Below, piece by piece: positions 1,410-60,953 of a stretch of 64,000 nt of DNA. Source of the stretch: a phage. Location: assembly GCA_029220445.1 (NCBI GenBank), contig GCA_029220445.1_3666.1; one strand, written 5' to 3'. A model generated the notes under the pieces. That model did no database searches. It saw nothing but the letters and a program-made list of their open reading frames with translations, and was not told where the DNA came from. Both the position numbers and the translations under genes were made by a program. Positions within the stretch are counted from its first letter, which is position 1; every line of letters begins with the position of its first letter.

Positions 1410-1808
1410 TCAGTTTAGCTTTTCTTCAACAACCCCATAGCTTGGGACAGAATCAAGAGCTTTCTGGTTTAAAAGTGGTGTAGCAGAATCTGCAAACGGT
1501 GTCCAAGTTTTTGTTCTGGAATTCCAGTAATGCTTCACTCTGGAATCTGGATGCACTATAACAAAAACTTTTTCACTTGTCAACACATTAATTTCTTCTA
1601 CACCCTTGCTGATAATTTCTCCGTCATAGCCCCCAGTCTGGTATCCTTCGTACCAGGTTCTTGCATAGGCATAGCCAGCCTGCCAGCATGCAGCCTCCTC
1701 CGAGGTGGAGACTACGTAGAAGTCCTTCTCAAATTCCGGAATACGCCCTTGCTTTACGCTCCAAGCTCCGCGAATTTTCATTGTAACTTTGAACAGTTTA
1801 TTTTTCAC
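1410..1808 (-). CDS. hypothetical protein (C-terminus ...GVVEEKLN)
   Basis: 132-aa ORF, same strand, short intergenic gaps. Confidence 0.5.
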   Translation of the reverse strand: MKNKLFKVTMKIRGAWSVKQGRIPEFEKDFYVVSTSEEAACWQAGYAYARTWYEGYQTGGYDGEIISKGVEEINVLTSEKVFVIVHPDSRVKHYWNSRTKTWTPFADSATPLLNQKALDSVPSYGVVEEKLN

Positions 1809-1820
1809 AACGGTTACCCA

Positions 1821-2075
1821 TCACAGCTCTACAATATCTGCATCTGACCCTACCCCAAAGGCATAATAGGACTCTTCCCCGAAATAATATTCAGGTGCAC
1901 CAGCGGTGATCAGGTCTGATCCTAAGATAAACACCACGTTGTGGCCTACATAACTGTGATGTTGCCGCACAGGATCATCCCACGGCAACCCTTCAAAGTA
2001 TACCGCAGGGACGACCTTTCCTTTCAGGAAGGATTGCCCCAAGTAGACGTTAGAATCAAGAATTTTAACCTTCAT
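1821..2075 (-). CDS. small protein of the acidic-tail paralog family
   Basis: MKVKILDSNVYLGQ...GSDLITAGA...DIVEL; paralogous to 2065-2292 and 5624-5857. Confidence 0.5.
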   Translation of the reverse strand: MKVKILDSNVYLGQSFLKGKVVPAVYFEGLPWDDPVRQHHSYVGHNVVFILGSDLITAGAPEYYFGEESYYAFGVGSDADIVEL

Positions 2076-2292
2076 GATCGTCCTCCACTATCTCTACATC
2101 CTCACCTAGGGCAAAGTTGTAGGTCCACTGACTGTCAAAGCATTCCTGAGATGCACCAGCGGCAATAAGATCTGCCCCTTTTATTTTTAAAAGGTCAGGG
2201 TAATCTTCGTTAGGGACAGCAGTAAACACTTTCCCCACTAAAGGCTCCTGACCAATATAGAATCTTGAATCTAAAACTTTAACTTTCATCAA
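2065..2292 (-). CDS. small protein of the acidic-tail paralog family
   Basis: MMKVKVLDSRFYIGQ...KGADLIAAGA...EIVEDDHEG; tandem with 1821-2075. Confidence 0.5.
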   Translation of the reverse strand: MMKVKVLDSRFYIGQEPLVGKVFTAVPNEDYPDLLKIKGADLIAAGASQECFDSQWTYNFALGEDVEIVEDDHEG

Positions 2293-28852: not shown

Positions 28853-30118
28853 TTATTCCAGCACCTCCCAAGTTTCTGGATTAAGATTGCGGAATGCGAT
28901 ACCCACAGGGAATTGAGGCACACCGTCCACCGTACGCTGTTGGAATTTTATCGTGATAAATTTGCCAACATATGAGCAGCATTTTTCGTAGTTCCTTACG
29001 GCAAAAGTGCCTTTCATTTTGCATTTGCATTGTGTCCCATCTTTCTCTTCGCAGATAAGAACACCTTCCCCGTTTTTATCTTTTTCAACACCGATCACTT
29101 TTGCTTCAACATCGGTGAACAGTTTCCACTTGAGCAGATCAGTAGAGCGTTGACCGTATTCGTAGGTGCCACGGAAGTTACGAATAATAGATCCTTCATA
29201 ACCTTCCTGCATGTACTGTCCGATGGAGTTGCGAACCTCTTCCTCGTTGTAGGCGATCTTGAAAGGAACACCCTCGACGTTGGTGAGATGGTTAACTTCA
29301 CAATAATCAATAACTTCCTGAAGATTTGTGGCCCGATCTTCCCAGCGATGGATGCAATCAGGAACATCGAACACCATCAGTTTCAGGTCATAAGAGCAGT
29401 AACCTCCATACCGATCAGAATCACGGACAGGTTCTTCATAAACCGGATGATCAACCTTGTTGAAGTCTTTCCATGTCTCCTCTCCGGCCTTGATCGCTTT
29501 CTCACGGCGTTTTATGTCTGCCATGAAATCCTTATCAATTTCTTTCTCAATGTCTTCCAGACTACGCCATTTCTTAACGAGGGAGGTTATTTTCTGCAAC
29601 GGTAAACCGTGAATGTAGAACTCCCCATCAAATTCATCAAAGCCTGTTTCTTCATGCAGGTCTTGTAGCTCACGGAGGATGTTACCTTTCGGCTCATACA
29701 CTTTGTTACCGCGAGAGATGAATTTAGGTACACCGTCTACGAATTTGACAAAGCAACGGTTCCCGTCAAGTTTGTGTTGCAGGTGGCATGGATACACAAT
29801 AGCGTGTGGTTTTTTCGAAGCATCTTGCGCCAGCATAGGTGAAATGTCAATGGCCTCAAGGTCTTCGACATTTTCTTTGTAACCCAGCCGGACTTGCTTT
29901 TCCCATTTAGACTGCGCCTCTAAAACAGCTTGTTCTTCTGCTGTAGTTTCGTTGGATCGCCCGATGTTTTTGGCTTCACATTTTGTGGTTTTTGATTGTA
30001 CAGCGCCACCAACCCTGCCGAACACAACAATAACCTCGTTGCCGCTTGTATCTACTTTCCACATCTGGATGGACCCGTCTTTATTGCGAGCATAAAGTGT
30101 TGTTTTGAATTGATGCAT
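28853..30118 (-). CDS. ATP-dependent DNA ligase
   Basis: adenylation motif I HKLDGNR (KxDGxR), EGSIIRN (motif IV) and LLKWK (motif V). Confidence 0.8.
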   Translation of the reverse strand: MHQFKTTLYARNKDGSIQMWKVDTSGNEVIVVFGRVGGAVQSKTTKCEAKNIGRSNETTAEEQAVLEAQSKWEKQVRLGYKENVEDLEAIDISPMLAQDASKKPHAIVYPCHLQHKLDGNRCFVKFVDGVPKFISRGNKVYEPKGNILRELQDLHEETGFDEFDGEFYIHGLPLQKITSLVKKWRSLEDIEKEIDKDFMADIKRREKAIKAGEETWKDFNKVDHPVYEEPVRDSDRYGGYCSYDLKLMVFDVPDCIHRWEDRATNLQEVIDYCEVNHLTNVEGVPFKIAYNEEEVRNSIGQYMQEGYEGSIIRNFRGTYEYGQRSTDLLKWKLFTDVEAKVIGVEKDKNGEGVLICEEKDGTQCKCKMKGTFAVRNYEKCCSYVGKFITIKFQQRTVDGVPQFPVGIAFRNLNPETWEVLE

Positions 30119-30387
30119 TACTCTACCTCTTCCTTAAAAATTTTAAACATCTCTTCTTTACTCATTACCAACCAGTCACCCATAAAATCAACAAGCCAAT
30201 CACCCTGGTACAAGACTAGGTTACCAAACGGCTCTACAAGCTCACACATACGACGAAGATCTCTGGTCCGAACAGGTGACGATGTAAACACACCTGTATC
30301 AATCCACCGTTGCAGATCAGATACTGATGAAGAGCTTCCGTCAAACTGGTGTGCTTCTACAGGTTTAGCAAGATTAAATAACGGCAT
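30118..30387 (-). CDS. hypothetical protein
   Basis: 89-aa ORF. Confidence 0.4.
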   Translation of the reverse strand: MPLFNLAKPVEAHQFDGSSSSVSDLQRWIDTGVFTSSPVRTRDLRRMCELVEPFGNLVLYQGDWLVDFMGDWLVMSKEEMFKIFKEEVE

Positions 30388-30682
30388 TGCAGTCCTCCTT
30401 CTCTAATAGGTCTTTTATCGGGTAAACAAGCAGGTGTGGATCGTAATAATTTATAGTTTTATTCTGCCACACTATGAACTTAATTACAACTAAATTTACC
30501 ACATCTTTATCTCCATGTAGTCCAACACACAGATTTGTCCATATTTTGTGGTTGAATACTTTGCTGTCGATGTAGATCTTAGTGTCAAACTTATCCTCTA
30601 TCCTACCTATAAATTTAACCAATTCTTTCATCTGATCTCCAAACACAGCATCGTTTTCAAGATCTCTGGAGTGCTTGTACAT
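30374..30682 (-). CDS. hypothetical protein
   Basis: 102-aa ORF. Confidence 0.4.
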   Translation of the reverse strand: MYKHSRDLENDAVFGDQMKELVKFIGRIEDKFDTKIYIDSKVFNHKIWTNLCVGLHGDKDVVNLVVIKFIVWQNKTINYYDPHLLVYPIKDLLEKEDCNAVI

Positions 30683-30745
30683 AACTTTCTACCTCACTTG
30701 CATACTTTCCGAAACAAGTAAAGCCGGGTAATCCCGGCTATGTTG

Positions 30746-31459
30746 TTAAATATACTCTGTTACATCCTTGAAGCTCGAAGGCTTCATAATCTTACCTTTA
30801 TTGTCAAGGAATATGATAACTTTATTACCGTTGTAGAATTCTTCCTTGGCAACAAAACCTTCATATCGACCATCAAAGCGTCGTTCAAGATCTTTAATCT
30901 CCAACTCGATTAGTTGTTCAGCAGGCATATCTGCACTGGCACCGTGTGAATACCGTAGATGGTTGACCCGTGCAAACTTGCTGTCATTCGATTTGAGAAC
31001 CTTACGCATCATCCCGCACACATCGCCGCGAAGCTGGAACAGCAAAGCTGTTGACAACTCTGCTAAGCGGTAAGCAGACGCTCTTTGCTTAGAGGTGTTT
31101 TTCGCAGCGATCAGTGTATCATAGAACTCGCCGATCTTGAACTTAATACCTCGCGGATTATCAAACAGGTTTGACCACTTTTCGTGATTATCATTAACAA
31201 GATAAGCGGCATAACTTGTGACAACGTGAAGATCGCAGGCCTCTTTTAGCAGGTGATCTCCACCATCACCTTTCTCCAGCTCTTCCAAAACCTCATTGAA
31301 CTCTTCCTCAATGAAGCTAAGCTGTAATTCGAATGGTGTGTATGATTTTTTCACTTTAGCTGCCACACGGTTCCAGTTTTCCACCCAATTGGCAGACCAA
31401 AGGTAGTTTTCAGGCTGAGACAGTTTTTCCAGGTTGTCGATCAGTTTAGTATTCAGCAT
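30746..31459 (-). CDS. hypothetical protein, possibly MazG-like nucleotide pyrophosphohydrolase
   Basis: EEEFNEVLEELEKGD...LLKEACDLHVV resembles the MazG ExxE...ExxD metal-binding helix pair; weak. Confidence 0.4.
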   Translation of the reverse strand: MLNTKLIDNLEKLSQPENYLWSANWVENWNRVAAKVKKSYTPFELQLSFIEEEFNEVLEELEKGDGGDHLLKEACDLHVVTSYAAYLVNDNHEKWSNLFDNPRGIKFKIGEFYDTLIAAKNTSKQRASAYRLAELSTALLFQLRGDVCGMMRKVLKSNDSKFARVNHLRYSHGASADMPAEQLIELEIKDLERRFDGRYEGFVAKEEFYNGNKVIIFLDNKGKIMKPSSFKDVTEYI

Positions 31460-31472
31460 TAAAGGTCTCCTT

Positions 31473-32234
31473 TTAAAGTTCCATAAAGTTTTCTACAGTT
31501 TCAATAAATGCTTTATCAGAGAAAGCGTCAACAGCACCGTTAAACCATACAGGGATCCCGCGATCCTCATATTGATAAAGGTCGCTACGTGAAATGCCAC
31601 TTCCATCTGCACTCTGCGAATCATACTTGTTTACAATCAGCAGTTTTGTTCCTTTACAAGTAGCAGGAAACAATTCCCAGTTAAAATTAATAACTGTGTT
31701 AGAACAACCCACTAGGATCACCATATCATTGCTGGTGAGAGATGTCAACAGGTCATACATGTCTGTATACTTAGGAGCAACCTCACCGAAGAACACTACA
31801 TTGGGCTTAACCCAAGTATACTTGCCTGTATCTACCTCCGTGTATCCGATATTTTTAATTACATCATTACCTTCAGCATCTTCGTAGGTGATTTCAGGCA
31901 AATACCCGTGGACATGTAAAATATCTTCATGTTTTACACCAGCACGCTCCAGCAAATCATCTACATTGGTGGTAAGGTTGATCACACGACCAGACCAGCG
32001 GGAATACCACTCAGCGATCCGAAGATGTGCAAGGTTAGGATCAACACTGCCCAGAGCTACACGACGTGCATTGTAAAAGTCATGCACCTTATAGTAGTTC
32101 TTGGCAAAGGTGTGGATGTTGCACACCTCATCGATGCTGAAATTCTCCCACATTGCAGTGCTACCAGATCGGAAGGTGGGAATACCAGATTCTGCGCTCA
32201 AACCAGCACCAGAAATAACAATAAGTCGTCGCAT
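31473..32234 (-). CDS. Sir2-family (sirtuin-like) NAD-dependent enzyme
   Basis: GAGLSAESGIPTFR, TTNVDDLLERAG, catalytic HG (LHVHGYL), VFFGE; lacks the CxxC zinc ribbon. Confidence 0.85.
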   Translation of the reverse strand: MRRLIVISGAGLSAESGIPTFRSGSTAMWENFSIDEVCNIHTFAKNYYKVHDFYNARRVALGSVDPNLAHLRIAEWYSRWSGRVINLTTNVDDLLERAGVKHEDILHVHGYLPEITYEDAEGNDVIKNIGYTEVDTGKYTWVKPNVVFFGEVAPKYTDMYDLLTSLTSNDMVILVGCSNTVINFNWELFPATCKGTKLLIVNKYDSQSADGSGISRSDLYQYEDRGIPVWFNGAVDAFSDKAFIETVENFMEL

Positions 32235-32242
32235 AAATGTCC

Positions 32243-32593
32243 TTAGTAGATGTTTTGTTTGATCTCTATTCCAAACTTCTTGAATGAGTCAGCAGCAAGC
32301 ATAAATTTACGAGCTGCCGATGGATTAGAAGTATGCACGAAAATAATCACGTTGTCAATAAGTGGTGGCTTTCCGAATACAAGTTTCTCCTCTAGCGCAG
32401 AGAAGCAGTCGTACCCTTCAAGAACTTCACCTAGATCATTGTCAAAATACCATTCAGATACGCGTCTGTAGAGCTTTCTCTTATCATTAAGAAAATCCAT
32501 AAATTCAGAAGAATTCTTTAGCCACAGAGCGTCTGGGAGTCCATAATCTGACGGATCTCTAAAATCATCAAGCCACACAATCCACTTCTTCAT
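32243..32593 (-). CDS. hypothetical protein with CheY-like receiver (flavodoxin-fold) resemblance
   Basis: ATG at 32593 forms an ATGA overlap with the RNA ligase stop; IVWLDDF and VSEWYFDNDLGEV resemble receiver-domain blocks, with Glu at the phospho-acceptor position. Confidence 0.4.
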   Translation of the reverse strand: MKKWIVWLDDFRDPSDYGLPDALWLKNSSEFMDFLNDKRKLYRRVSEWYFDNDLGEVLEGYDCFSALEEKLVFGKPPLIDNVIIFVHTSNPSAARKFMLAADSFKKFGIEIKQNIY

Positions 32594-33525
32594 TGCATAT
32601 AGTCCTCGTTGTGGAAATAGCAGTCCAGTATCTCGCGACGCTCCTGCTCTAATAAGCAATTCCACACATCTTCTGTATAGTTGCTACGAATAAATTTTAC
32701 CATACCGTAAAACTCCTCGTCAACACGTTTAAAAATATCGTCATCCCAAATCTTCCATGCTTTACCTCTCATTACGGCCTTCCGTGCCAAATAGTATGGA
32801 GACTTGATCTTCAGCTGCAGGTCATAAGGGCAGTAAGGCTTACGGATCATATACCCTTCGCCCCTTGTTTCTGCAGCTAATTCTTTTGCATAGCTGAACG
32901 GGATTTCACGCACAGTGTGAGGACGTTTTGCACCAAGGTATTTGGCAATCCCATCTAAAGCTGCTTCTGGTAGCATTATTCCAGAATCATTATATCTGCA
33001 ACCTATCAAATATGCGCCATGGTCTTCTTGAACAATATGCGGATCTGAAGGGTGACAAATTTCAAACATGAATGTCATGTTTTCATTGCCCATAACCTTC
33101 TTGATAAGATCTAAATTACCACATTGCTCTTGGATGGTTTCCTTTGCAAGGTTACAATATGGAGAATCAAGAGACCCGGTTGTTGAGAACAATAGTTCAC
33201 CTTTATGAGATGATACCACACCGAGGAATCCGTTCTTTTTCTCTACCGCAGTAACAAGTTTACTGTCCGGTAGGTTGGTGGAGTTTTCTCCTAAGTTGAA
33301 TACTTTTGTGAAAGGCCATGCCACAACATTCCCCTCATTGCCAACAACAATACCTCGGCACTCCAGTAAACGCGGAGACAAATGCCACAGATTGTTGTAG
33401 AATACTTTTCTGGCATATTTATAGATCTTTAATCCAAGATCTGGATAATACCGACTGGTTACAAGACCTTTGTCTACTAGGTCATCTGCATTAAAATACT
33501 TCATCATACGTTCCTCATTTGTCAT
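32590..33525 (-). CDS. RNA ligase (Rnl2-like nucleotidyltransferase)
   Basis: EKKNGFLGVV (motif I KxNG), FMFEI (motif IV), GEGYMIRKPYCPYDLQLKIKS matching T4 Rnl2 EGYVLKP...IKCK. Confidence 0.75.
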   Translation of the reverse strand: MTNEERMMKYFNADDLVDKGLVTSRYYPDLGLKIYKYARKVFYNNLWHLSPRLLECRGIVVGNEGNVVAWPFTKVFNLGENSTNLPDSKLVTAVEKKNGFLGVVSSHKGELLFSTTGSLDSPYCNLAKETIQEQCGNLDLIKKVMGNENMTFMFEICHPSDPHIVQEDHGAYLIGCRYNDSGIMLPEAALDGIAKYLGAKRPHTVREIPFSYAKELAAETRGEGYMIRKPYCPYDLQLKIKSPYYLARKAVMRGKAWKIWDDDIFKRVDEEFYGMVKFIRSNYTEDVWNCLLEQERREILDCYFHNEDYMQ

Positions 33526-33625: not shown

Positions 33626-34036
33626 ATGTCTAAAATGCTATATATCGTGCGTGGTCTGCCAGGGTCTGGCAAATCAACACTGGCAAATGCGCTATCTTTA
33701 GAAGGTCTGTATCCACATTTTGAGAACGACATGTTCTGGTATGACGATGACGGCAATTACAACTGGGATGCAAGTAAAGTAACACTCGCAGCAAAATGGT
33801 GCAAAGATAACGTAGAAGATATGATGAGTATGGGATACGACCGTATCGTGGTAAGTAATACGTTTACAAAAGAAAAACATGTGCAGGAATATGTTGACAT
33901 GGCAATCAGTCATGGGTATAGTTATACCGTGATCGTGGTTGAAAACCGCCACGGTAATAAAAGCATTCATGATGTTCCAGACAAGGTTGTGGATCGTATG
34001 GAACGCCAGCTTAAAAACTGCATTAAACTTAAATGA
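33626..34036 (+). CDS. P-loop polynucleotide 5'-kinase-like protein
   Basis: MSKMLYIVRGLPGSGKSTLA resembles the N-terminus of the T4 Pnk kinase domain; start taken at ATG 33626 rather than the track's TTG 33569. Confidence 0.65.
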   Translation: MSKMLYIVRGLPGSGKSTLANALSLEGLYPHFENDMFWYDDDGNYNWDASKVTLAAKWCKDNVEDMMSMGYDRIVVSNTFTKEKHVQEYVDMAISHGYSYTVIVVENRHGNKSIHDVPDKVVDRMERQLKNCIKLK

Positions 34037-34043
34037 GGAATGT

Positions 34044-34598
34044 ATGAAATACTTTGTAACAAGCGACACACACTTTCTCCACCAGCGGGTCATGGAGTTT
34101 GATTCATGTCAAAAACACAGATCTCAGTATGATCACAATCTTGACAGTATGAATGCGGGAATCATCGCCGAGTGGAACTCTGTTGTGTCACCTGCAGACA
34201 CTGTGTTCCACTTGGGAGATATTGCGTGCACTAATGATAAGAATATCAACAAATTACTTCCAGATATTCTAGATATGTTGAACGGACATATTATTCTTGT
34301 TCGTGGCAACCATGACACAAGGACGACTGTCAGAATTATGAAAGAGTTCTATCACGAGGTTGTAGATTATTACGAGCTTCGCCACAACAAGAATTTGATC
34401 TGTATGAGCCATTACCAATTTGCAAAGTGGAACAGAAAGCCTCACGGATCAGTCCAACTGTTCGGTCATGCTCACGGAACCACACAACAGTTGTTTGGCA
34501 GGCAGCTTGATGTCGGTTGGGATGTGTGGGGGAGACTCTTACCATTAGAAGAGGCATACCGTACTGCAATGAGTTTTGATATTGACAGCAGGGAGTAA
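34044..34598 (+). CDS. calcineurin-like metallophosphoesterase (putative 2',3'/3'-phosphatase)
   Basis: MKYFVTSDTHFLH, HLGDIA, LVRGNHDT, GHAH metallophosphatase motifs; start at ATG 34044 with GAGGAA SD. Confidence 0.8.
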   Translation: MKYFVTSDTHFLHQRVMEFDSCQKHRSQYDHNLDSMNAGIIAEWNSVVSPADTVFHLGDIACTNDKNINKLLPDILDMLNGHIILVRGNHDTRTTVRIMKEFYHEVVDYYELRHNKNLICMSHYQFAKWNRKPHGSVQLFGHAHGTTQQLFGRQLDVGWDVWGRLLPLEEAYRTAMSFDIDSRE

Positions 34599-37517: not shown

Positions 37518-37592
37518 GCCCTGTTAGCTTAGTGGATAAAGCAGCGGCCTTCTAAGCCGTTGACACTGGTTCGAGTCCAGTACGGGGTGCCA
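37518..37592 (+). tRNA. tRNA-Arg (anticodon TCT)
   Basis: manual fold: 7-bp acceptor, D arm GCTT/AAGC, anticodon loop CTTCTAA with U33, T loop TTCGAGT, encoded CCA. Confidence 0.8.
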
Positions 37593-37596
37593 AATT

Positions 37597-37683
37597 GGGG
37601 AGTTATCCCGTAGAGGTAGCGGTGTAGACTGTAAATCTATTGTCATTGCGACTCGGGTGGTTCGACTCCACCACTCCCCACCA
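37597..37683 (+). tRNA. tRNA-Tyr (anticodon GTA), class II with long variable arm
   Basis: perfect 7-bp acceptor GGGGAGT/ACTCCCC, anticodon loop CTGTAAA, T loop TTCGACT, encoded CCA. Confidence 0.8.
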
Positions 37684-37797
37684 AATTTATATTTTTAGAT
37701 GCATAAATAATACAGATAATGGCATTGATATTTATCGTCGTTTATACTAGTCACTAACTGCTCGAAAATCAGTGTCATTATCAGTATAATTTATAAA

Positions 37798-37888
37798 GGA
37801 GGGTAGGGAGCAATGGTGCTCAAGCGGTCTTGAAAACCGTCCCGTTGAGGATGACTCGATGATGGTTCGATTCCATTACTCTCCGCCA
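37798..37888 (+). tRNA. tRNA-Ser (anticodon TGA), class II with long variable arm
   Basis: acceptor GGAGGGT/ACTCTCC, anticodon loop CTTGAAA, 20-nt variable arm, T loop TTCGATT, encoded CCA. Confidence 0.75.
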
Positions 37889-37986
37889 CATTGTTGACCT
37901 TGTAATTAAGCGAAAGCCGGAAGCAGAACCGGATTATCAAATGTTACAGTCGTCATCGCCGACTAGCAACATGGTCAACATACTGA

Positions 37987-38083
37987 GCTAGGTAAGCCCT
38001 TTGGCAAGGGCGAGGATTTTTAATCCTGAAAATAGACGAGGTAGTCGTTGAATACATAGGTGGTTCGATTCCATCACCTAGCA
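37987..38083 (+). tRNA. tRNA-like element with aberrant anticodon arm (possible Lys-UUU variant or pseudo-tRNA)
   Basis: perfect 7-bp acceptor GCTAGGT/ACCTAGC, canonical D arm and T arm, but the anticodon-arm position is a 5-bp stem with a 5-nt loop TTTTA (or 4-bp stem with loop TTTTTAA) and about 30 extra nt precede the T arm; no encoded CCA. Confidence 0.35.
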
Positions 38084-38090
38084 CCTTTTT

Positions 38091-38166
38091 GCTGATGTAG
38101 CACAATCGGTAGTGCAATTGATTTGTAATCAATAGGTTGTAGGTTCAAGTCCTGCCATCAGCACCA
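38091..38166 (+). tRNA. tRNA-Thr (anticodon TGT)
   Basis: perfect acceptor GCTGATG/CATCAGC, anticodon loop TTTGTAA, T loop TTCAAGT, encoded CCA. Confidence 0.8.
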
Positions 38167-38167
38167 A

Positions 38168-38242
38168 GGCCCTGTAGCTGGAAGGTTCAAGCAAGCGACT
38201 CATAATCGCCAGACGGTGGTTCAATTCCACCCAGGGCCACCA
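38168..38242 (+). tRNA. tRNA with CAT anticodon (Met or lysidine-modified Ile)
   Basis: perfect acceptor GGCCCTG/CAGGGCC, anticodon loop CTCATAA, T loop TTCAATT, encoded CCA. Confidence 0.8.
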
Positions 38243-38253
38243 AATAGTAAATA

Positions 38254-38330
38254 CTCCGCGTAGCTCAGCTTGGTAGAGCGCCTGATTTGGGATCAGGAGG
38301 TCGAGTGTTCGAATCACTCCGTGGAGACCA
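38254..38330 (+). tRNA. tRNA-Pro (anticodon TGG)
   Basis: acceptor CTCCGCG/CGTGGAG, anticodon loop TTTGGGA with G37, T loop TTCGAAT, encoded CCA. Confidence 0.8.
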
Positions 38331-39150: not shown

Positions 39151-39434
39151 GAGTTGCTGCACTGTTTATTGTGTGCTTGTTATTGTGTGGGTGTGCAACC
39201 AGCGTTGAGAGAGAATACAAGATTGACCCTCCAGATGTAGGAAGGTTGATTGTTAAACCCCCGGAAGGTGCCATGAAACCACCTGCTAAAGCTATACCTT
39301 TAAAGAAAGGTGCGCCAGATGCGGTGAATTCTGGCATTATGAGGGATAATAATCTGTCTTGTAGCAATGATAGAGCTAAATTGATCATTTTGCAAGACTA
39401 TATTAGAACACTGTTTCCAAAGGAGAGAGGTTAA
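39147..39434 (+). CDS. o-spanin (Rz1-like outer-membrane lipoprotein)
   Basis: signal peptide with lipobox-like LLLCGC, proline-rich mature region, second conserved Cys near the C-terminus. Confidence 0.6.
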   Translation: MRVAALFIVCLLLCGCATSVEREYKIDPPDVGRLIVKPPEGAMKPPAKAIPLKKGAPDAVNSGIMRDNNLSCSNDRAKLIILQDYIRTLFPKERG

Positions 39435-40981
39435 TGTCTAAGATTTACGGACCGTGTTCTGAAAAGCAGAAGATGATCCTAGAAAACGATGCAGATATTT
39501 TGGTAATCGGCGGTGCCGCAGGGTCTGGCAAGTCGTTCCTCTTGCAGTTGATGCCGCTTAAAATTATTGATGACCCCCACAGCTCTGTGGTTATGTTCCG
39601 AAGAACAACCCCGCAGTTGGAAGGTGAGGGTGGACTATGGCCTAAAGCAGTAGCTATTTATAGTGATCTGCCTGAAAACATTAAGCCAAAGTTTAGAGAG
39701 AAGGATCATAAGTTCATTTTTCCACGGTTTGATCCGAGCACTGGCAAGTGGGATAGAAGCAAAAAGGGAGCTGTTGTAAAATACTGCCACATGGAGTATG
39801 TACAAGATAAGCTTAACCATCAGGGGCTTGAGTACACCATGGTTTGCTTCGATGAGGGCACGCAGTTCGAATGGGAGCAGATAGACTATCTGATGTCTCG
39901 TCTGCGATCTCAGTCAAAGTATCCATCAAGAATGGTTATCAGCTGTAACCCCGATTCAGAACACATGCTTGCCAAACTGGTTAGATGGTGGTTGGACGAT
40001 GAAGGGTATCCAGATCCGGAGAAATGCGGTAAGAAAAGATATTTTATCCGACGCGACGGTGAATTTATATGGGGAGACTCTAAAGAAGAGTTGATAGAGA
40101 AATACACCACGGTTAACGGACTGGGTGTGGAGATCAAGCCAAGACCGTTGTCATTCTCGTTTATAGGCGCAACAATATTCGATAATCCTGTCTGCTTAAG
40201 AGACAACCCAGAATACCTTGCTTTCCTTGAAGGTCTGCCGGAACTGGAAAAAGCTCAACTTCTTCATGGTAACTGGTTTGCAAAGCCTGAGGGTGCAAAC
40301 TATTTTCAAAGATCTTTCCTTCGTGATGCCGATAGAGTACCCCTTGGATCAGTATCTTGCAGGGCATGGGATAAGGCAGGAACCGAGAGAACTTCCGGTA
40401 ATAAATTTCCTGACTTTACCGCCAGTATTAAGGTAAGTAAAGATAGCGACGGCTTTTATTACCTGTCCGGTGATTATTGTCCTGAGAACGTGGATGACGG
40501 GAGGTATTCCACAGGTCTGGAAGGCAAGTTCTGTAAAAAGGCTGGTGAACGAGATGTGATCATCAGGAAACAGGCGCAGTTTGATGGTGATGATTGCATA
40601 ATCGTATTCTCTGTGGACCCTGGTCAGGCAGGTAAGAGTGAGTTCTTAACCTCATCCAGATCCTTGCTCGCCGAAGGGTTCAGGGTTGAAGAAGACCCAA
40701 TGCCTTCCAACAAATCTAAACTGACAAGGTTCTCACCTTTTGCCAATCTTGCACAACAAGGAATGGTGAGGATTGTAAAATCCAGTTTCCATCCTGATAC
40801 TCTGGAAGCATTTCTGACTGAACTTGAAAAATTCAACGGGGAAAGATCAACATTTAACAGAAAAGACGACTGGGCAGACTGTGTAGCTTCTGCGATTAAT
40901 TTCCTGGAGAAAGAGGAGGTAGCACTTCCTTGTGTGATTCCATCAATCTCATCACCTTCTATGTTCAAGCGTTTTATCTAA
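39434..40981 (+). CDS. terminase large subunit
   Basis: Walker A VIGGAAGSGKS near the N-terminus, 515 aa, immediately upstream of the portal gene. Confidence 0.85.
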   Translation: MSKIYGPCSEKQKMILENDADILVIGGAAGSGKSFLLQLMPLKIIDDPHSSVVMFRRTTPQLEGEGGLWPKAVAIYSDLPENIKPKFREKDHKFIFPRFDPSTGKWDRSKKGAVVKYCHMEYVQDKLNHQGLEYTMVCFDEGTQFEWEQIDYLMSRLRSQSKYPSRMVISCNPDSEHMLAKLVRWWLDDEGYPDPEKCGKKRYFIRRDGEFIWGDSKEELIEKYTTVNGLGVEIKPRPLSFSFIGATIFDNPVCLRDNPEYLAFLEGLPELEKAQLLHGNWFAKPEGANYFQRSFLRDADRVPLGSVSCRAWDKAGTERTSGNKFPDFTASIKVSKDSDGFYYLSGDYCPENVDDGRYSTGLEGKFCKKAGERDVIIRKQAQFDGDDCIIVFSVDPGQAGKSEFLTSSRSLLAEGFRVEEDPMPSNKSKLTRFSPFANLAQQGMVRIVKSSFHPDTLEAFLTELEKFNGERSTFNRKDDWADCVASAINFLEKEEVALPCVIPSISSPSMFKRFI

Positions 40982-40984
40982 GTG

Positions 40985-41013
40985 TTGCCAATCTTAATTA
41001 GATGTGGTAGAAT
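40985..41013 (+). promoter_or_regulatory. candidate sigma70-type promoter TTGCCA-N17-TAGAAT
   Basis: hexamers at 40985-40990 and 41008-41013 between terminase and portal. Confidence 0.4.
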
Positions 41014-41030
41014 AGAGTAATCGGAGATAC

Positions 41031-41056
41031 TAGCCCTCTAACACGAGGGCTATTTT
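41031..41056 (+). terminator. hairpin with T tract (terminator or leader attenuator)
   Basis: 8-bp stem TAGCCCTC/GAGGGCTA with 6-nt loop followed by TTTTGTT, downstream of the terminase stop and of the candidate promoter. Confidence 0.4.
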
Positions 41057-41083
41057 GTTATACTGTTTTGAGGGGTAAAGCTT

Positions 41084-42640
41084 GTGTCCAAAAAGAACCG
41101 CAGGAAACACAACGCCACAGCCAAAACTGTGAATAAATCTGGGAACGCAGGCGCACCAACTCATAATGTTCGTATGAGTGAGATCGGTTCTGGCGCACTT
41201 TCCCAAATTATGGCAGAATCGCAATCTATGATGGTTGAGGAATTGCGTTGGCCTCAGCTGATTGCCACAGTGGAGACTATGAAATGTGATTCCACAGTTG
41301 CTACTGCCTTAGATACAAAATATGTTTTCATCACGAAAGCATTCAATGATTTTAAGATCCTTTATAATGTTAAAAGTGAAGACTCTAAGAAAGCTGCTGA
41401 GCTTATAGAGTATTCTTTGCGTAATTTGGCAAACCAACAAACTCTTCGAGATATTGCAAGAAGCGCAGCTACCTTTAACGAGTATGGTTTTTCACTGTTT
41501 GAGAAAGTATACCGCAGAGAGAAAGAAGGTAAATATGCCGGGATGCTTCTTATTGATAAAATTGCATTCCGACCTCAGGCCAGTTTGTCCAGATCAGAGC
41601 CGTTTGTCTTTGACAAGAATAGTAGAACACTGACAGGTATTTATCAGTCACCTAATGCATTTCTAAACACTCAGAATGCACGCTGGGCTGGACCTCTTGC
41701 TGCAATGCCTTCAAAAGGCTTTAATGAGCCTGAAATTTTCATCCCTGCTAAAAAGCTTATGCTCATGACCCTGTCAGGAACAGAATCTAACCCTGCAGGT
41801 GTGTCACCGATGATAGGTTGCTACAGATCTTTCCGTGAGAAAGTTCTGATTGAAAACCTTGAGGTTGTTGGCTGTTCCAAAGACCTTGGTGGTGTGCTTG
41901 AGCTGAAAATTCCTTCCAATATTTTGAACAAGGCCAGCATTGACCCGAATTCAATGGAAGGGAGAATGGTTGCAGACCTTATGCTTGACGCAGCAAACGC
42001 CCATAGTGGTGAGCAAAGTTTCTTTATACTTCCGTCTGATAGAGATAAGTCTGGTAAAGAGCTTTACTCCATGACCCTGAAGGGGGTTGACGGTATGGGT
42101 AAGCAATATTCCACTAAAGATTTGATCGATGCCCGTAAGAAGGCGATTCTTGACCGTTTCGGTGCTGGCTTTATTAACCTCGGTAACGATAACGTTGGAT
42201 CCTTCTCTCTGTCTGAGTCAAAACAGTCTATCCATGGTCATTTTGTTCAGCGTGATATAGATATTATCACTGAAGCCTTCAATAAGGATCTTATTCCACA
42301 GCTTCTGGCATTGAATGGTATCATCCTTGAAGATGATGATATGCCTAAACTGAAACCTGGTCTGATTGAAGAGGTGGACATGGAGAGCTTCTCCAAGTTT
42401 GTCCAGAGGATCGGTGCTGTAGGTTACTTGCCAAAAACTCCTGCAGTAATTAATAAGATTCTTGAAGTAGGCGGGTTTGATGAAAGATTTGACGAGGACA
42501 TGGATCAGGAAGAGCTGATGAAGCTCTTGGGCCAGGACATCAGTAGGGCTGGTGATGGAATGGCTGCAGGATCCACTGGTAACGGCACTTCTAAGATGTC
42601 ATCAACCAGAGATAATTCCATATCCAACATGGAAAATTAA
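41084..42640 (+). CDS. portal protein
   Basis: 518-aa protein directly after the large terminase; GTG start with GAGGGG SD; acidic C-terminus. Confidence 0.7.
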   Translation: MSKKNRRKHNATAKTVNKSGNAGAPTHNVRMSEIGSGALSQIMAESQSMMVEELRWPQLIATVETMKCDSTVATALDTKYVFITKAFNDFKILYNVKSEDSKKAAELIEYSLRNLANQQTLRDIARSAATFNEYGFSLFEKVYRREKEGKYAGMLLIDKIAFRPQASLSRSEPFVFDKNSRTLTGIYQSPNAFLNTQNARWAGPLAAMPSKGFNEPEIFIPAKKLMLMTLSGTESNPAGVSPMIGCYRSFREKVLIENLEVVGCSKDLGGVLELKIPSNILNKASIDPNSMEGRMVADLMLDAANAHSGEQSFFILPSDRDKSGKELYSMTLKGVDGMGKQYSTKDLIDARKKAILDRFGAGFINLGNDNVGSFSLSESKQSIHGHFVQRDIDIITEAFNKDLIPQLLALNGIILEDDDMPKLKPGLIEEVDMESFSKFVQRIGAVGYLPKTPAVINKILEVGGFDERFDEDMDQEELMKLLGQDISRAGDGMAAGSTGNGTSKMSSTRDNSISNMEN

Positions 42641-57685: not shown

Positions 57686-58354
57686 ATGGCTGTAGCTTAT
57701 CCTACAATACCAATTCCAGATCTTGAAGATGCAGAAACAGTCCTGAGTGATGACTTCTTGGTTGTCAACCAGACTGATGGGACAAGAAAGGCTAAGATTG
57801 ACGATGTTGTCAACGATCTTAGTATTACTAAGATAGTCTATTTCACAGAGGGTGGTTATCTTAAGAGCAAGAAGGACTTTGCTTATGACCCAGAGACTAA
57901 GCGCTACTACACGTGGAACGGGGATTATCCTAAAATAATCCTCCCAGACTCCACTGTAGAGGGTGCTGGGGGCGTGTCTGCAAATGCATGGTCTGTTTTT
58001 GGTGAGCTTGCTGCAACTTCTTCTGGCAGAATAGTTGATTACGGATCTATCGGCGGTCAGCTTGATATGGATCTTGAAGTTGCGGATACCTTTAAGGTTC
58101 GACTAACTTCAAATACCACAATCTCTTTTGAAAATCAAACAGAAGGTCTTGAAGGGGTGGCGAGAACTATAACCGTATGCATTACTCAGACCTCTGGCGG
58201 CAACAAAGTCTATTGGCCTGGTAATGTTAAATGGTCCTACGGAAGAGATCCTATCCTAACATTTACAGCTGGTGCAACAGATATTTTCAAGTTGGAAACC
58301 TACGACAACGGGTTAACTTGGTACGGGGCACTGATTATCGCAGGAGCTATCTAA
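57686..58354 (+). CDS. tail protein
   Basis: 222-aa ORF; N-terminus MAVAYPTIPIPDLEDAETV resembles the N-terminus of the downstream fiber (MADIKVVRIESLPATTAVT). Confidence 0.45.
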   Translation: MAVAYPTIPIPDLEDAETVLSDDFLVVNQTDGTRKAKIDDVVNDLSITKIVYFTEGGYLKSKKDFAYDPETKRYYTWNGDYPKIILPDSTVEGAGGVSANAWSVFGELAATSSGRIVDYGSIGGQLDMDLEVADTFKVRLTSNTTISFENQTEGLEGVARTITVCITQTSGGNKVYWPGNVKWSYGRDPILTFTAGATDIFKLETYDNGLTWYGALIIAGAI

Positions 58355-58355
58355 G

Positions 58356-60953
58356 ATGCGTATTCAACATAACATTGATAACGTATTTCAGATGATTGAG
58401 GGGCACAGGAAGTGCCTCGATAACAACACAGGTATTACCAACACCCCTATACAAAATAAGCTAGTAAACCCGGATGGTCTTATAGCTGCAGGGTGGGCAG
58501 GTAATAAGATAAATAATGATTGGGCAATGCATGAGTCCCAAGCTGTGTTGATTCTGGGATACATTGAAGCATACAGGGCATCGAAAAGCGATTTCTATCT
58601 GGATAGGGCAAAAGATGCTTGGGAAGCTTACAATAGCCATCTTCTGGGTGCATATGCAGTAGAAAGTAAAATGCAAAGATTGTCCCACTACCCTCTATCC
58701 ACAGATGGGGTTCCATCACATGGTGGGTTTAAAGATGTGGTGGTGTCTTTTACCAACGGTAGAGGAAAAATCCCAGCTGGATCTCCGACATGGGGGGAAT
58801 ACCTTGACAAGGCATTCCAAGCGTATAACGGTGTGTTAGGAAGAAACACTGTAGACTCTGATGTTTACGGTGGCACAGATGCTAACCCAGATTGGACAAC
58901 ATCCGGATTAAGTTGGTGGGTTGAGTGGTACATAGCATGGGATGGTAACCGCTATTGGGCTAACGGTAGCATAGCCGACAGTGGTCATACGTCTGTAGAG
59001 TTCGGCACAATCCAATTACAAGATAAGGGTGTTACAGGCAGCCACAAGGTGACCTATTGTGTAAGATTACCTCAAGAGCAGGGCGGATCGGTGATACCTG
59101 CAGGATCCCCTGTAATTGTAAATCCTATAAACGTGGTTGCAGATAATCAGGCCCCAGAGTTGGACGGGGAAGAAATGTGGTGTGACGCTTGTTATCAACT
59201 CTACACCTTGACAGGTGAGGAAAAGTATTACACCGCGTTTGAACAGTCTTACAACAAATTGCTTAATTTCAGTGATATAAACGCCTACGACAAACTGTTT
59301 AGGAAGACCACGTTGATTAAGGCACCGTTTACAGATGGTACTTGCCTTGTTGCAGGAACAGTTCCTGCCATGAGCAGGGACAGTGACGGGTATATCAATT
59401 TTAGAATGAACGCACGCCAGCCTTGCGAAATAATTCAAAAAGGGACTACATACAAAATAGGCAGAGATGCTGAAATTGTTATGAATTTCGGAGGAGAAGG
59501 GGTTCTGTTCCAGCCACATTTCATCCTTAATGATGGCAACAATAACAAAAAACAGTACAGGATAGGGGTTCCTTTTGGAGGGGCAGAGGTAACAGAAATA
59601 GTTGCCAAGGTTACTGATTTCGTAGAGGTAGTTGGTAAAGACGGTAATCCGTATCTCTTACCTAAAGAGGAAAACATTGCCGTAAGCGGTGGCGCGAGTG
59701 TCAGTATGCAGTACGATACCGACATTTACAACCACTCTGACAACTTCACCCGTTGTAATATAGCAAGAGGTAAAGTAACTTTCAATTTTGGAAGAGAGAT
59801 TTCTTTAAACTCAGTAACTTATCGATCAGATGATGAGATGGTAAGGGTCAAATTTCTTGACAAAGATAGGTGGTTATGGTATGCTGATCTATATGCCACT
59901 AATGGACAATGGATAACAGAAACTCTTACTCTAGGAGACTTCAAACTAGATCCGACACAACCTCATCACACCGAAGAAGAGATTAAACCTTTCTTTGCTA
60001 ATCCTAAGGGGCTCACCTCTGTAGATTTCAGCCTAAGCGACAGACAGATAGGTAATGGCTTGTTTGATCTGTACTGCGTAAACACGCTGCCGCAGTTCTA
60101 TATTGCAGATAGGGATGCTTATCTAATATGGTTTAGCGTATGGATGGCAAGCAAGACAGAATCAACCGCTAAGGTTGGTGATTGCTATGTCAGAAACTAC
60201 AAGCAAGGTGCATACAGGCACACACCGGGTGTGTTCCCTGCCGGAAAGGTGATAGATAAGGAAAACTATCTCTTAGAGGAAAAGCCAAATTGGCCCTACC
60301 CTGGCATGCAATACCCAGCAGTATACTGCATGGGTGCAGAAAACATAGATCGCCATAGATTGTCAAATACAATAGGCTTTCTGTATGACGCTCAAGTCTG
60401 GTATAATAATACATTTAAGACAGAGGGTCCAGTTGCCTCGCGTTATGTATGGCAGAGAGGTAATGAAGGGCTGACTGGTTGGTGGGAGATGGTAGATAAC
60501 TCTAAGCTCCAGTCAAGATCTTTTGTTGCTGCGTGCCGCACAATATATGAGCTCAAGAAACATAAAGAACCTGTTGATGAAAGACTATTCCTGTTCTGCC
60601 AGAAATGGGCATGGTTCCTCAATAGATTCCAGTCATCTCATTCAGGAAATCTACCTACAGACTTTAACACCTCTGGGGGATATTCTTATCAGGACAGAGG
60701 AGACAGGATGTGGGTGGTAGGTGAATGGCTTGCAGGTTGCTGCTGGCTAGGTCTGTGCGGGTATTCAGAGACAATACCTCAAATAGACATTGTTGTAGAA
60801 GCCTGTATGAAGCTACTGCAAAAGCACCACTTCATCAATGGGGATAATGTTTTAAACGGCTGCTGGGCAGTTTCTGATCCGGTGGGCTATCACTCTGGCG
60901 AAATCCTTCGCGGTCTGGGCCTTTATGCTCAATACCGTGGATTGTACCTTTAA
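58356..60953 (+). CDS. large tail protein, possibly enzymatic (depolymerase-like)
   Basis: 865 aa, Trp/Tyr-rich, precedes the tail fiber. Confidence 0.55.
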   Translation: MRIQHNIDNVFQMIEGHRKCLDNNTGITNTPIQNKLVNPDGLIAAGWAGNKINNDWAMHESQAVLILGYIEAYRASKSDFYLDRAKDAWEAYNSHLLGAYAVESKMQRLSHYPLSTDGVPSHGGFKDVVVSFTNGRGKIPAGSPTWGEYLDKAFQAYNGVLGRNTVDSDVYGGTDANPDWTTSGLSWWVEWYIAWDGNRYWANGSIADSGHTSVEFGTIQLQDKGVTGSHKVTYCVRLPQEQGGSVIPAGSPVIVNPINVVADNQAPELDGEEMWCDACYQLYTLTGEEKYYTAFEQSYNKLLNFSDINAYDKLFRKTTLIKAPFTDGTCLVAGTVPAMSRDSDGYINFRMNARQPCEIIQKGTTYKIGRDAEIVMNFGGEGVLFQPHFILNDGNNNKKQYRIGVPFGGAEVTEIVAKVTDFVEVVGKDGNPYLLPKEENIAVSGGASVSMQYDTDIYNHSDNFTRCNIARGKVTFNFGREISLNSVTYRSDDEMVRVKFLDKDRWLWYADLYATNGQWITETLTLGDFKLDPTQPHHTEEEIKPFFANPKGLTSVDFSLSDRQIGNGLFDLYCVNTLPQFYIADRDAYLIWFSVWMASKTESTAKVGDCYVRNYKQGAYRHTPGVFPAGKVIDKENYLLEEKPNWPYPGMQYPAVYCMGAENIDRHRLSNTIGFLYDAQVWYNNTFKTEGPVASRYVWQRGNEGLTGWWEMVDNSKLQSRSFVAACRTIYELKKHKEPVDERLFLFCQKWAWFLNRFQSSHSGNLPTDFNTSGGYSYQDRGDRMWVVGEWLAGCCWLGLCGYSETIPQIDIVVEACMKLLQKHHFINGDNVLNGCWAVSDPVGYHSGEILRGLGLYAQYRGLYL

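Follow-up and report, generated by a model that had tools for sequence, protein, structure and literature searches.

What is an NAD-binding sirtuin doing in a phage gene cluster that is headed by an RNA ligase? The question is raised by a 64,000-nucleotide stretch of phage DNA (contig GCA_029220445.1_3666.1 of assembly GCA_029220445.1; the whole stretch is referred to here as the window), in which positions 30746-32593 carry genes for a small receiver-like protein (gp079), a sirtuin (gp080) and a protein of pyrophosphatase fold (gp081). This flagged 1.9 kb shows 99.7% identity to Escherichia phage rV5/V5 (NC_011041), and the flagged region is covered to more than 80% in 118 phage records, among which the Vequintavirinae predominate. 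The three open reading frames had been pointed out in an earlier note on this DNA; all three are indeed present, on the minus strand, and they are beyond chance, being long, strongly matched by profiles and accompanied by hundreds of homologs. We give about even odds to the reading that gp079, gp080 and gp081 serve as the NAD/ADP-ribose arm of a module with which phage rV5 mends breaks in RNA, probably tRNA.

A 2022 paper had already described this locus in rV5/V5, together with its domain content and the leading hypothesis, the function given there being a prediction. In that work (Iyer, Burroughs, Anantharaman and Aravind 2022, Viruses 14:1977, PMC9503650, section 3.7.3), sirtuin-centred 'NAD+-utilizing RNA-repair systems' were described, in which the sirtuin is proposed to strip 2'-phosphates in the manner of KptA/Tpt1, and the associated enzymes to open the cyclic phosphate or to process ADP-ribose cyclic phosphate (ADPr>P). 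Configuration 2 of these systems, with Escherichia phage V5 and Proteus phage Mydo as its prototypes, corresponds to the rV5 locus described here and is identical to it in content; the other two occur in jumbo phages and in T5-like phages (SP15). The present analysis independently reproduced every domain call and each of the three neighbourhood types.

In rV5, the unit is headed by gp078 (32590-33525, minus strand, 311 aa; 'RNA ligase 1' in RefSeq), an Rnl1-family ligase whose stop overlaps the start of gp079 as ATGA at 32590-32593, which agrees with the earlier observation that these genes abut the RNA ligase. The cREC domain protein gp079 (32243-32593, minus strand, 116 aa counted from its ATG; 'hypothetical protein' in RefSeq) is followed after a gap of 8 nt, with an AGGA just 5' of the sirtuin start, by gp080 (31473-32234, minus strand, 253 aa; RefSeq 'Sir2 (NAD-dependent deacetylase)'), a zinc-less sirtuin and divergent class III (CobB/SIRT5-like) relative. 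After a further gap of 13 nt comes gp081 (30746-31459, minus strand, 237 aa; RefSeq 'nucleotide pyrophosphohydrolase'), which has the all-α nucleoside triphosphate (NTP) pyrophosphohydrolase fold of the MazG/dimeric dUTPase/HisE superfamily. Ligase, cREC protein, sirtuin and pyrophosphatase form a tightly packed minus-strand unit that is probably translationally coupled. Just 3' of gp081 lies a GC-rich hairpin (30722-30739, minus strand; 7 bp, six of them GC), a possible terminator or attenuator ending this unit; it comes from a consensus scan only, its T-tract is weak, and the region holds seven terminator-like sites against a shuffled mean of 5.8, which is no enrichment.

Divergent from the minus-strand unit, two plus-strand genes encode a P-loop kinase of the polynucleotide-kinase type (gp077, 33626-34036; RefSeq 'ATPase') and a calcineurin-like metallophosphoesterase (gp076, 34044-34598; RefSeq 'phosphoesterase'). 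The ligase gp078 matches Pfam RNA_lig_T4_1 at E=1.1e-14 (55 bits, cut-off 28) and phrog_562 at E=9e-66; against TIGR02308, the T4 RnlA equivalog model, it reaches 37 bits, far under the cut-off of 242, and a PDB sequence search returned no match for it. For gp077, the matches are Pfam AAA_33 (E=2.4e-10) and phrog_505 'polynucleotide kinase' (E=4e-10), and the translation carries the Walker A motif GLPGSGKST. Finally, gp076 matches Pfam Metallophos (E=1.2e-5, 26.3 bits, cut-off 21.5), phrog_547 (E=2e-42) and PDB entry 1xm7 (E=2.5e-9), and shows the motifs DxH, GD, GNHD and GHAH in its translation. The genes for RNA_lig_T4_1, AAA_33 and Metallophos proteins, all above their Pfam cut-offs, lie within 2 kb of one another, and a ligase, a 5' kinase and a 3' phosphoesterase are together the components of heal-and-seal RNA repair. 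Like T4 Pnkp-Rnl1 and Clostridium thermocellum Pnkp/Hen1, rV5 has an Rnl1-family ligase, a P-loop 5' kinase and a 3' phosphoesterase (calcineurin-like, as in CthPnkp), and, as in the T4-type repair setting, it is a phage with tRNA genes close by. In contrast to the T4 and Clostridium enzymes, those of rV5 are separate polypeptides with a shorter ligase (311 aa), and the sirtuin, the cREC protein and the pyrophosphatase have no T4 counterpart.

The sirtuin gp080 is matched by Pfam SIR2 (PF02146) at E=6.9e-28 (98.2 bits, cut-off 24). Its residue conservation was read from a 17-sequence alignment at 49-93% identity and from a wider set of 120 homologs reaching down to 47%, together with three jumbo-phage versions. 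Invariant in the 17-sequence alignment are G9-A-G11, S16-G17, F21-R22, F53-Y54-N55-x-R57-R58, T89-N90-V91-D92-D93, H109-G110, F148-F149-x-E151 and S178-N179. In the wider set, the NAD-binding and catalytic residues G9-A-G11, S16, G17, F21, R22, N90, D92 and H109-G110 are conserved in 119-120 of the 120 homologs, the motifs GAGxSxxSGIxxFR, TNVDD, FFGE and GCSN are kept throughout, and E151 is invariant. Because the NAD-binding and catalytic residues hold in homologs down to 47% identity, gp080 is, by this measure of its sequence, an enzyme under selection and no relic.

A four-cysteine zinc-ribbon small domain is typical of the sirtuin family, if not universal in it. In the segment that holds the four zinc cysteines of CobB, no such cluster occurs in any of the 120 gp080 homologs or in any of the three jumbo-phage versions; 70 of the homologs have no cysteine there, 48 have one and two have two, the jumbo-phage versions likewise staying within zero to two, and the AlphaFold2 (AF2) model of gp080 shows a three-strand β-module where the zinc-ribbon domain would be. 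The earlier description of a full sirtuin signature lacking zinc-ribbon cysteines is borne out by these alignments, with one addition, namely that the glutamine of the TQNID motif is replaced by threonine (Q89T) in the whole gp080 clade, and by serine or alanine in jumbo phages. Furthermore, Y54 and R57 of gp080, invariant in the 120 homologs, align with CobB Y92/R95 and with the Y-x-x-R of SIRT5 (the full-length CobB sequence used for comparison agrees with the PDB alignment). In class III sirtuins, this Tyr/Arg pair binds the distal carboxylate of succinyl-lysine; the corresponding anion pocket of gp080 could hold a phosphate.

Among solved structures, the best sequence match of gp080 is E. 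coli CobB (1s5p, E=2.4e-21), followed by SIRT5 and Archaeoglobus Sir2-Af1, and a Foldseek search with the AF2 model (pLDDT 89) likewise places CobB at the top (E=2e-18, TM 0.74/0.82), followed by SIRT5, Af1 and SIRT2. With E. coli CobB and human SIRT5, gp080 shares the fold (TM ~0.74-0.82), the NAD-binding motifs, the catalytic His and the Y-x-x-R motif; it differs from them in its identity of ~27%, its missing zinc cysteines, Q89T, and a gene context of RNA-end and ADP-ribose enzymes. The 'NAD-dependent protein deacylase' models of NCBIfam match gp080 at E=8e-36, far under their curated cut-offs: the scores are 123 versus 243 bits for NF040867 and 105 versus 320 bits for NF001755, both CobB-type equivalogs, and 94 versus 318 bits for the subfamily model NF001753. 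The proposal that gp080 is a CobB ortholog was rejected, the equivalog cut-offs all being missed by a wide margin. Since its nearest relatives are CobB, SIRT5 and Af1, since the CobB cut-offs are missed and since no defence Sir2 model matches it (see below), gp080 is a divergent, phage-specific offshoot of classical class III-like sirtuins that is unrelated to the ThsA-, DSR- and HerA-associated NADases.

The second protein of the putative arm, gp079, matches Pfam cREC_REC (PF20274, 'cyclic-phosphate processing receiver domain') at E=9.1e-14 (52.3 bits, cut-off 27) and phrog_1479 at E=6e-33. PF20274 is found in all 54 gp079 homologs for which a Pfam assignment had been precomputed; one further match, a 63-aa fragment, has none. 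The 116-aa protein had been taken to be receiver-like, which the PF20274 match supports; it had also been said to carry Glu in place of the phospho-acceptor Asp, and here the alignment speaks otherwise. In 20 cREC homologs, D51 and D53 (FDNDLG), H87-T88-S89-N90-P91 and K96 are invariant, and D9 and D10 of WLDD are found in at least 90%; given these four aspartates, gp079 keeps the acidic receiver triad. The cREC domain was named and defined in a 2021 jumbo-phage paper (PMC7824862), where it was predicted to process cyclic ADP-ribose derivatives and RNA ends, and it has been described as experimentally uncharacterised (PMC9503650). In the genomes compared here, it lies beside Rnl1 in rV5, Mydo and phi92-like phages, and beside a sirtuin and a Nudix enzyme, or fused to the latter, in jumbo phages. 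In these genomes it thus occurs with RNA ligases and NAD/ADP-ribose-processing genes, and not with a histidine kinase.

How far does this association extend beyond rV5? Sirtuin homologs were found in 987 of 50,697 phage records, including T5, rV5, phi92 and several jumbo-phage groups, and neighbourhoods were compared in a set of 60 sirtuin loci (56 from IMG/VR and four annotated phage loci) that was searched with the proteins of the window. In 13 of these 60, which are of the Vequintavirinae type, the RNA ligase, the kinase, the metallophosphoesterase, an ortholog of gp081 and a DNA ligase all lie within 6 kb of the sirtuin, and ten of the 13 also have cREC; within this type, the gene order of rV5 differs from that of Mydo. 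A further 29 of the 60 loci, T5-like, encode a HAD_SAK_2 'Swiss-army-knife RNA repair' phosphatase (Pfam E=2e-20) ~1 kb downstream of the sirtuin, and seven have a methyltransferase-like protein upstream of it. In Moazamivirus and phi92-like phages, a 234-aa protein is recurrently encoded upstream of the sirtuin; it was considered as a possible new partner and dropped, since the PHROG that it matches carries a DNA methyltransferase annotation.

That sirtuin, cREC and pyrophosphatase cooperate is supported most strongly, and independently, by two very distant jumbo phages. In 121Q, the sirtuin, a Nudt16-like Nudix enzyme and cREC are encoded by consecutive genes, and in Eneladusvirus pEa_SNUABM_47 the sirtuin is followed by a Nudix-cREC fusion and a PIN-PhoH protein, with NMNAT and NAMPT genes just upstream. 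These arrangements suggest that MazG-like and Nudix enzymes are interchangeable beside sirtuin and cREC. On co-conservation of the flanking genes with the sirtuin, whose absence would have counted against the earlier reading, the answer is divided: cREC is co-conserved with it, and the MazG-like gene is so only in part, being separable from it in phi92-like phages. Because the conserved partners in several unrelated phage lineages are enzymes of RNA ends and ADP-ribose derivatives, an NAD-using RNA-repair step, which was absent from the proposals of the earlier note, is better supported than the framing given there. Of that framing, the (de)modification of proteins and the countering of NAD-based immunity stand as possible rivals, weighed below, whereas the comparison with defence NADases and the manipulation of NAD pools fit poorly with CobB and SIRT5 as nearest relatives and with RNA-end partners.

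Several other neighbours of phage sirtuins were observed in the same set. Genes of NAD+ reconstitution or salvage stand at ~1-6 kb from the sirtuin cluster in two other phages. The NMNAT/ADP-ribose-pyrophosphatase gene and NAMPT of pEa_SNUABM_47 (L076:1-2978) resemble NARP2, and NAMPT-like and ribose-phosphate-pyrophosphokinase-like genes ~5 kb from the cluster of Mydo (L002:1-1133) resemble the Adps/Namat pair of NARP1. T5-like loci carry tandem paralogous DUF7415 genes after the sirtuin and any HAD_SAK_2 gene (L003:7494-8323, L032:10969-11762, L054:11214-11657), also where HAD_SAK_2 is missing. A DUF7277-DUF7275 protein may be a further conserved neighbour: it is encoded 1.5-3 kb upstream of the sirtuin in a phi92-like phage (L035:6712-7716) as well as in the unrelated Vibrio phage phi-Grn1 (L075:1737-2498). 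In Erwinia phages of the Hena1 type (L055:9090-9575), ligase, kinase and sirtuin occur without a detectable cREC; a 161-aa phrog_652 protein is encoded between kinase and sirtuin and may replace cREC functionally in these Erwinia relatives.

How would the parts work together? Following Iyer et al. 2022, host metal-independent RNases would cleave tRNA or mRNA and leave 2',3'-cyclic-phosphate and 5'-OH ends. The cyclic phosphate would be opened by cREC and/or the metallophosphoesterase, the 5' end would be phosphorylated by the kinase and the break sealed by the ligase, and the residual 2'-phosphate would be removed by the sirtuin with NAD+, in the manner of Tpt1/KptA. In this last reaction, a phosphate oxygen would be joined to C1'' of NAD+ with displacement of nicotinamide, and the catalytic His would activate the ribose 2''-OH for attack on the phosphorus, so as to free ADP-ribose 1'',2''-cyclic phosphate. 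Finally, cREC would linearise this cyclic phosphate, and a pyrophosphatase (MazG-like in rV5, Nudix in jumbo phages) would cut it to mononucleotides. Sirtuin and Tpt1 chemistry run in parallel, both beginning when an oxygen of the substrate attacks C1'' and nicotinamide is lost, after which the 2''-OH forms a 1'',2''-cyclic species; by this analogy, a Tpt1-like reaction would be chemically natural for a sirtuin.

The rV5 cluster resembles Tpt1/KptA and the yeast and plant Trl1 pathway (cyclic phosphodiesterase (CPDase), kinase, ligase, Tpt1, Cpd1, Poa1) in its proposed logic, in that a putative NAD+-consuming transferase is linked to an RNA ligase, a 5' kinase, a cyclic-phosphate or phosphate esterase, and enzymes that might clear ADP-ribose 1'',2''-cyclic phosphate. 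The likeness is one of functional analogy only: Tpt1 has the ADP-ribosyltransferase (ART) fold, whereas gp080 has the unrelated sirtuin Rossmann fold, with cREC in place of the 2H CPDase and MazG-like or Nudix enzymes in place of Macro/Poa1. Indeed, the ART-fold PTS_2-RNA family (Tpt1/KptA) has no Pfam match in any protein of the cluster. A bolder form of the proposal, which we advance tentatively and think rather less probable than the repair arm as such, is that the zinc-less phage sirtuin clade consists of RNA 2'-phosphotransferases convergent with ART-fold Tpt1/KptA, that cREC is a new type of cyclic phosphodiesterase, metal-independent and with a receiver fold, and that the MazG-like and Nudix enzymes clear ADP-ribose cyclic phosphate.

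A number of observations weigh against an NAD-dependent repair arm. The rest of the 60 loci have no recognisable RNA-repair neighbour of the sirtuin; among such loci, which include phi92-like and Klebsiella T5-like ones, its neighbours are DUF7415, DUF7275/DUF7277, a C5 methylase, endonuclease VII or unknown proteins, and no RNA-repair domain was found. In the phi92-like phages (L069-L072, phages of ~150 kb), cREC, phosphoesterase, Rnl1 and kinase where present, DNA ligase and the gp081 ortholog stand together as a block, with the sirtuin at a distance of ~30 kb; in two of these four loci no Rnl1 and kinase were detectable, and cREC is kept. Since this block is intact with the sirtuin at a distance, and since some loci are without an RNA-repair neighbour, part of the linkage among related myoviruses and Vequintavirinae may be inherited synteny. 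In addition, gp078, gp077 and gp076 could by themselves finish heal-and-seal repair of the T4/Clostridium type, with no removal of a 2'-phosphate. The sirtuin sequences contribute three further points: R57 is replaced by Leu, with Arg as the next residue, in the jumbo-phage versions (121Q, pEa_SNUABM_47); the gp080 clade is uniformly acidic (median isoelectric point (pI) 5.1, net charge ~-12), a property uncommon among RNA-binding enzymes that stand alone; and gp080 keeps the acyl-lysine-channel residues HG-x-L and FFGE, a channel that is equally compatible with protein deacylation. Lastly, literature searches on phage sirtuins, cREC and Tpt1-like sirtuin activity returned only the two comparative papers from the Aravind laboratory, with no experimental follow-up.

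The assignment of gp081 to the arm is the part for which an alternative survives best. The weak MazG likeness that had been seen in this flank was reproduced: gp081 is marginal against Pfam PRA-PH (13.5 bits versus 21.3, E=0.099) and matches phrog_671 'nucleotide pyrophosphohydrolase' at E=5e-22, and its Mydo ortholog (35% identity, E=6e-31) passes the PRA-PH cut-off with 25.8 bits. A PDB sequence search, profile included, found no match for gp081. Acidic residues of the ExxE...ExxD metal-binding type are conserved, with E51-E53, E56 and D76 invariant and E73 present in at least 90%, in an alignment of limited diversity. On this evidence, gp081 belongs to the all-α NTP-pyrophosphatase superfamily. 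Its model, of moderate confidence (pLDDT 74), is a four-helix bundle with a C-terminal β-hairpin extension, and by this model dimeric dUTPases are closer to the protein in structure than a minimal MazG is.

It is worth asking whether gp081 is independent of the sirtuin, that is, whether it is a deoxynucleoside triphosphate (dNTP) sanitiser of the dimeric-dUTPase type that is grouped with DNA ligase and nucleotide-metabolism genes and lies next to the sirtuin by synteny. We regard this as a serious possibility, although one that falls somewhat short of probable; it bears on no gene other than gp081 and fits with whatever is concluded for gp079 and gp080. Indeed, gp081 follows the DNA ligase no less closely than it follows the sirtuin, and the ATP-dependent DNA ligase of rV5, gp084 (28853-30118, minus strand; Pfam DNA_ligase_A_M, E=1.2e-12), is syntenic with the block in rV5-, Mydo- and phi92-like phages. 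Yet in rV5 gp081 follows only 13 nt after the sirtuin, with the hairpin only beyond gp081, and in jumbo phages a Nudix pyrophosphatase occupies the equivalent slot beside sirtuin and cREC, suggesting that a pyrophosphatase step is required.

For the sirtuin, the better of two further readings is that gp080 is a CobB/SIRT5-like protein lysine deacylase (a desuccinylase, for example) or a protein ADP-ribosyltransferase that remodels host or phage proteins, its neighbours being unrelated genes of nucleic-acid metabolism. CobB, SIRT5 and Af1 are its closest relatives by both sequence and structure, the best NCBIfam matches are deacylase models (E=8e-36), and the acidic-acyl pocket (Y-x-x-R), the catalytic His and the FGE loop are all kept; an acidic pI suits a protein-directed enzyme, and the sirtuins of phi92-like and some T5-like phages have no RNA-repair neighbour. 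We nevertheless consider this reading rather unlikely. The CobB equivalog cut-offs are missed by far (123 versus 243 and 105 versus 320 bits), the zinc module, which is part of the peptide-binding cleft, is without its cysteines clade-wide, and E. coli already has a CobB of its own. Furthermore, deacylation leaves unexplained the recurring adjacency of cREC and a pyrophosphatase in unrelated phages, and that of HAD_SAK_2 in T5-like phages.

More doubtful still is the reading in which sirtuin, cREC and pyrophosphatase act not on RNA but on small NAD-derived molecules, either in counter-defence (against cyclic-ADP-ribose-type signals, ADP-ribose-1''-phosphate or ADPr>P) or to feed a phage NAD+ reconstitution pathway; it comes close to what the earlier note proposed. 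The prediction for cREC covers cyclic ADP-ribose derivatives besides RNA ends (PMC7824862), a Nudix-cREC fusion stands beside a sirtuin, NAD salvage genes are found near the cluster elsewhere (NMNAT/Nudix and NAMPT in pEa_SNUABM_47; NAMPT-like and ribose-phosphate-pyrophosphokinase (PRS)-like genes 5 kb off in Mydo), and an acidic pI suits a small-molecule enzyme. There is also a precedent: a phage Poa1p-like Macro phosphatase of ADP-ribose-1''-phosphate, an enzyme of a tRNA-splicing by-product, was found experimentally to serve anti-defence NAD+ reconstitution against RES, and not RNA repair (bioRxiv 10.64898/2026.01.28.702374). On the other side, gp080 has no similarity to defence-type SIR2 NADases, an NAD-consuming sirtuin has no evident role in the degradation of a signal, no NAMPT or NMNAT gene for NAD+ salvage or reconstitution is annotated in the rV5 window, and the tight, probably translationally coupled link to an RNA ligase, together with HAD_SAK_2 in T5-like phages, indicates RNA ends.

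Finally, the earlier note had set CobB-type deacylases against defence-type Sir2 NADases, and a defence-type reading of gp080 is rejected: the PADLOC defence Sir2 models do not match it (the only match is one of 13 bits to PDC-S65) and Pfam SIR2_2 stays below threshold (13.2 bits versus 24.5, E=0.097), the nearest relatives being CobB and SIRT5. With the defence SIR2 NADases (ThsA, DSR1/2, SIR2-HerA, SIR2-pAgo), gp080 shares the same broad NAD+-binding superfamily; unlike them, it is a stand-alone, single-domain protein of 253 aa from a lytic phage, with no defence-type sensor or partner (SLOG, HerA, pAgo or a large N- or C-terminal domain) fused to it or present in its operon.

Around the cluster, a few other features deserve mention. 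Between gp084 and gp081 lie the small proteins gp082 and gp083 (30118-30682, minus strand), for which no Pfam match was found; they are syntenic with the block in rV5-like, Mydo-like and Erwinia (Hena1-type) loci, and their position relative to the sirtuin varies by lineage. The phage tRNA cluster (37518-38330, plus strand) is located ~3.5 kb from the repair genes and outside the operon; its nearness counts in favour of the repair reading. ARAGORN predicts seven genes in it and RefSeq lists six; the seventh, tRNA-like gene (37987-38085, plus strand) has a four-base anticodon, atcc, and could be a pseudo-tRNA, an intron-containing tRNA or a frameshift-suppressor-like tRNA. Elsewhere in the window, the terminase large-subunit coding sequence of rV5 (gp065/gp066, ~39432-42277, minus strand; record 58027-60872) is annotated as a three-piece join into which an HNH homing-endonuclease gene is inserted in the manner of an intron or intein, and gp139 (~1790-2107, minus strand; record 98197-98514) is a homolog of RaiA, a ribosome-associated translation inhibitor or hibernation factor. 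Among the database relatives, 18-25 GenBank records of the MG0656xx series, unannotated and entered as 'Campylobacter phage' with C. jejuni as host, are 95-99% identical to rV5 across 30746-32665; these are probably E. coli rV5-like phages that were mislabelled or carried along in Campylobacter phage preparations.

What the present analysis adds to the published description (PMC9503650) is incremental: the clade-wide loss of the zinc cysteines, the Q-to-T replacement, the retention of Y-x-x-R, the acidity of the sirtuin clade, the dUTPase-like fold of gp081 and the unlinking of the sirtuin in phi92-like phages. If an NAD/ADP-ribose arm of RNA repair does operate in rV5, it would represent a second, NAD-dependent route by which phages repair tRNA against host anticodon nucleases and RNase-based immunity. 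Furthermore, if the published prediction is right, sirtuins would gain RNA 2'-phosphates as a class of substrate, and receiver domains would gain a new catalytic role.

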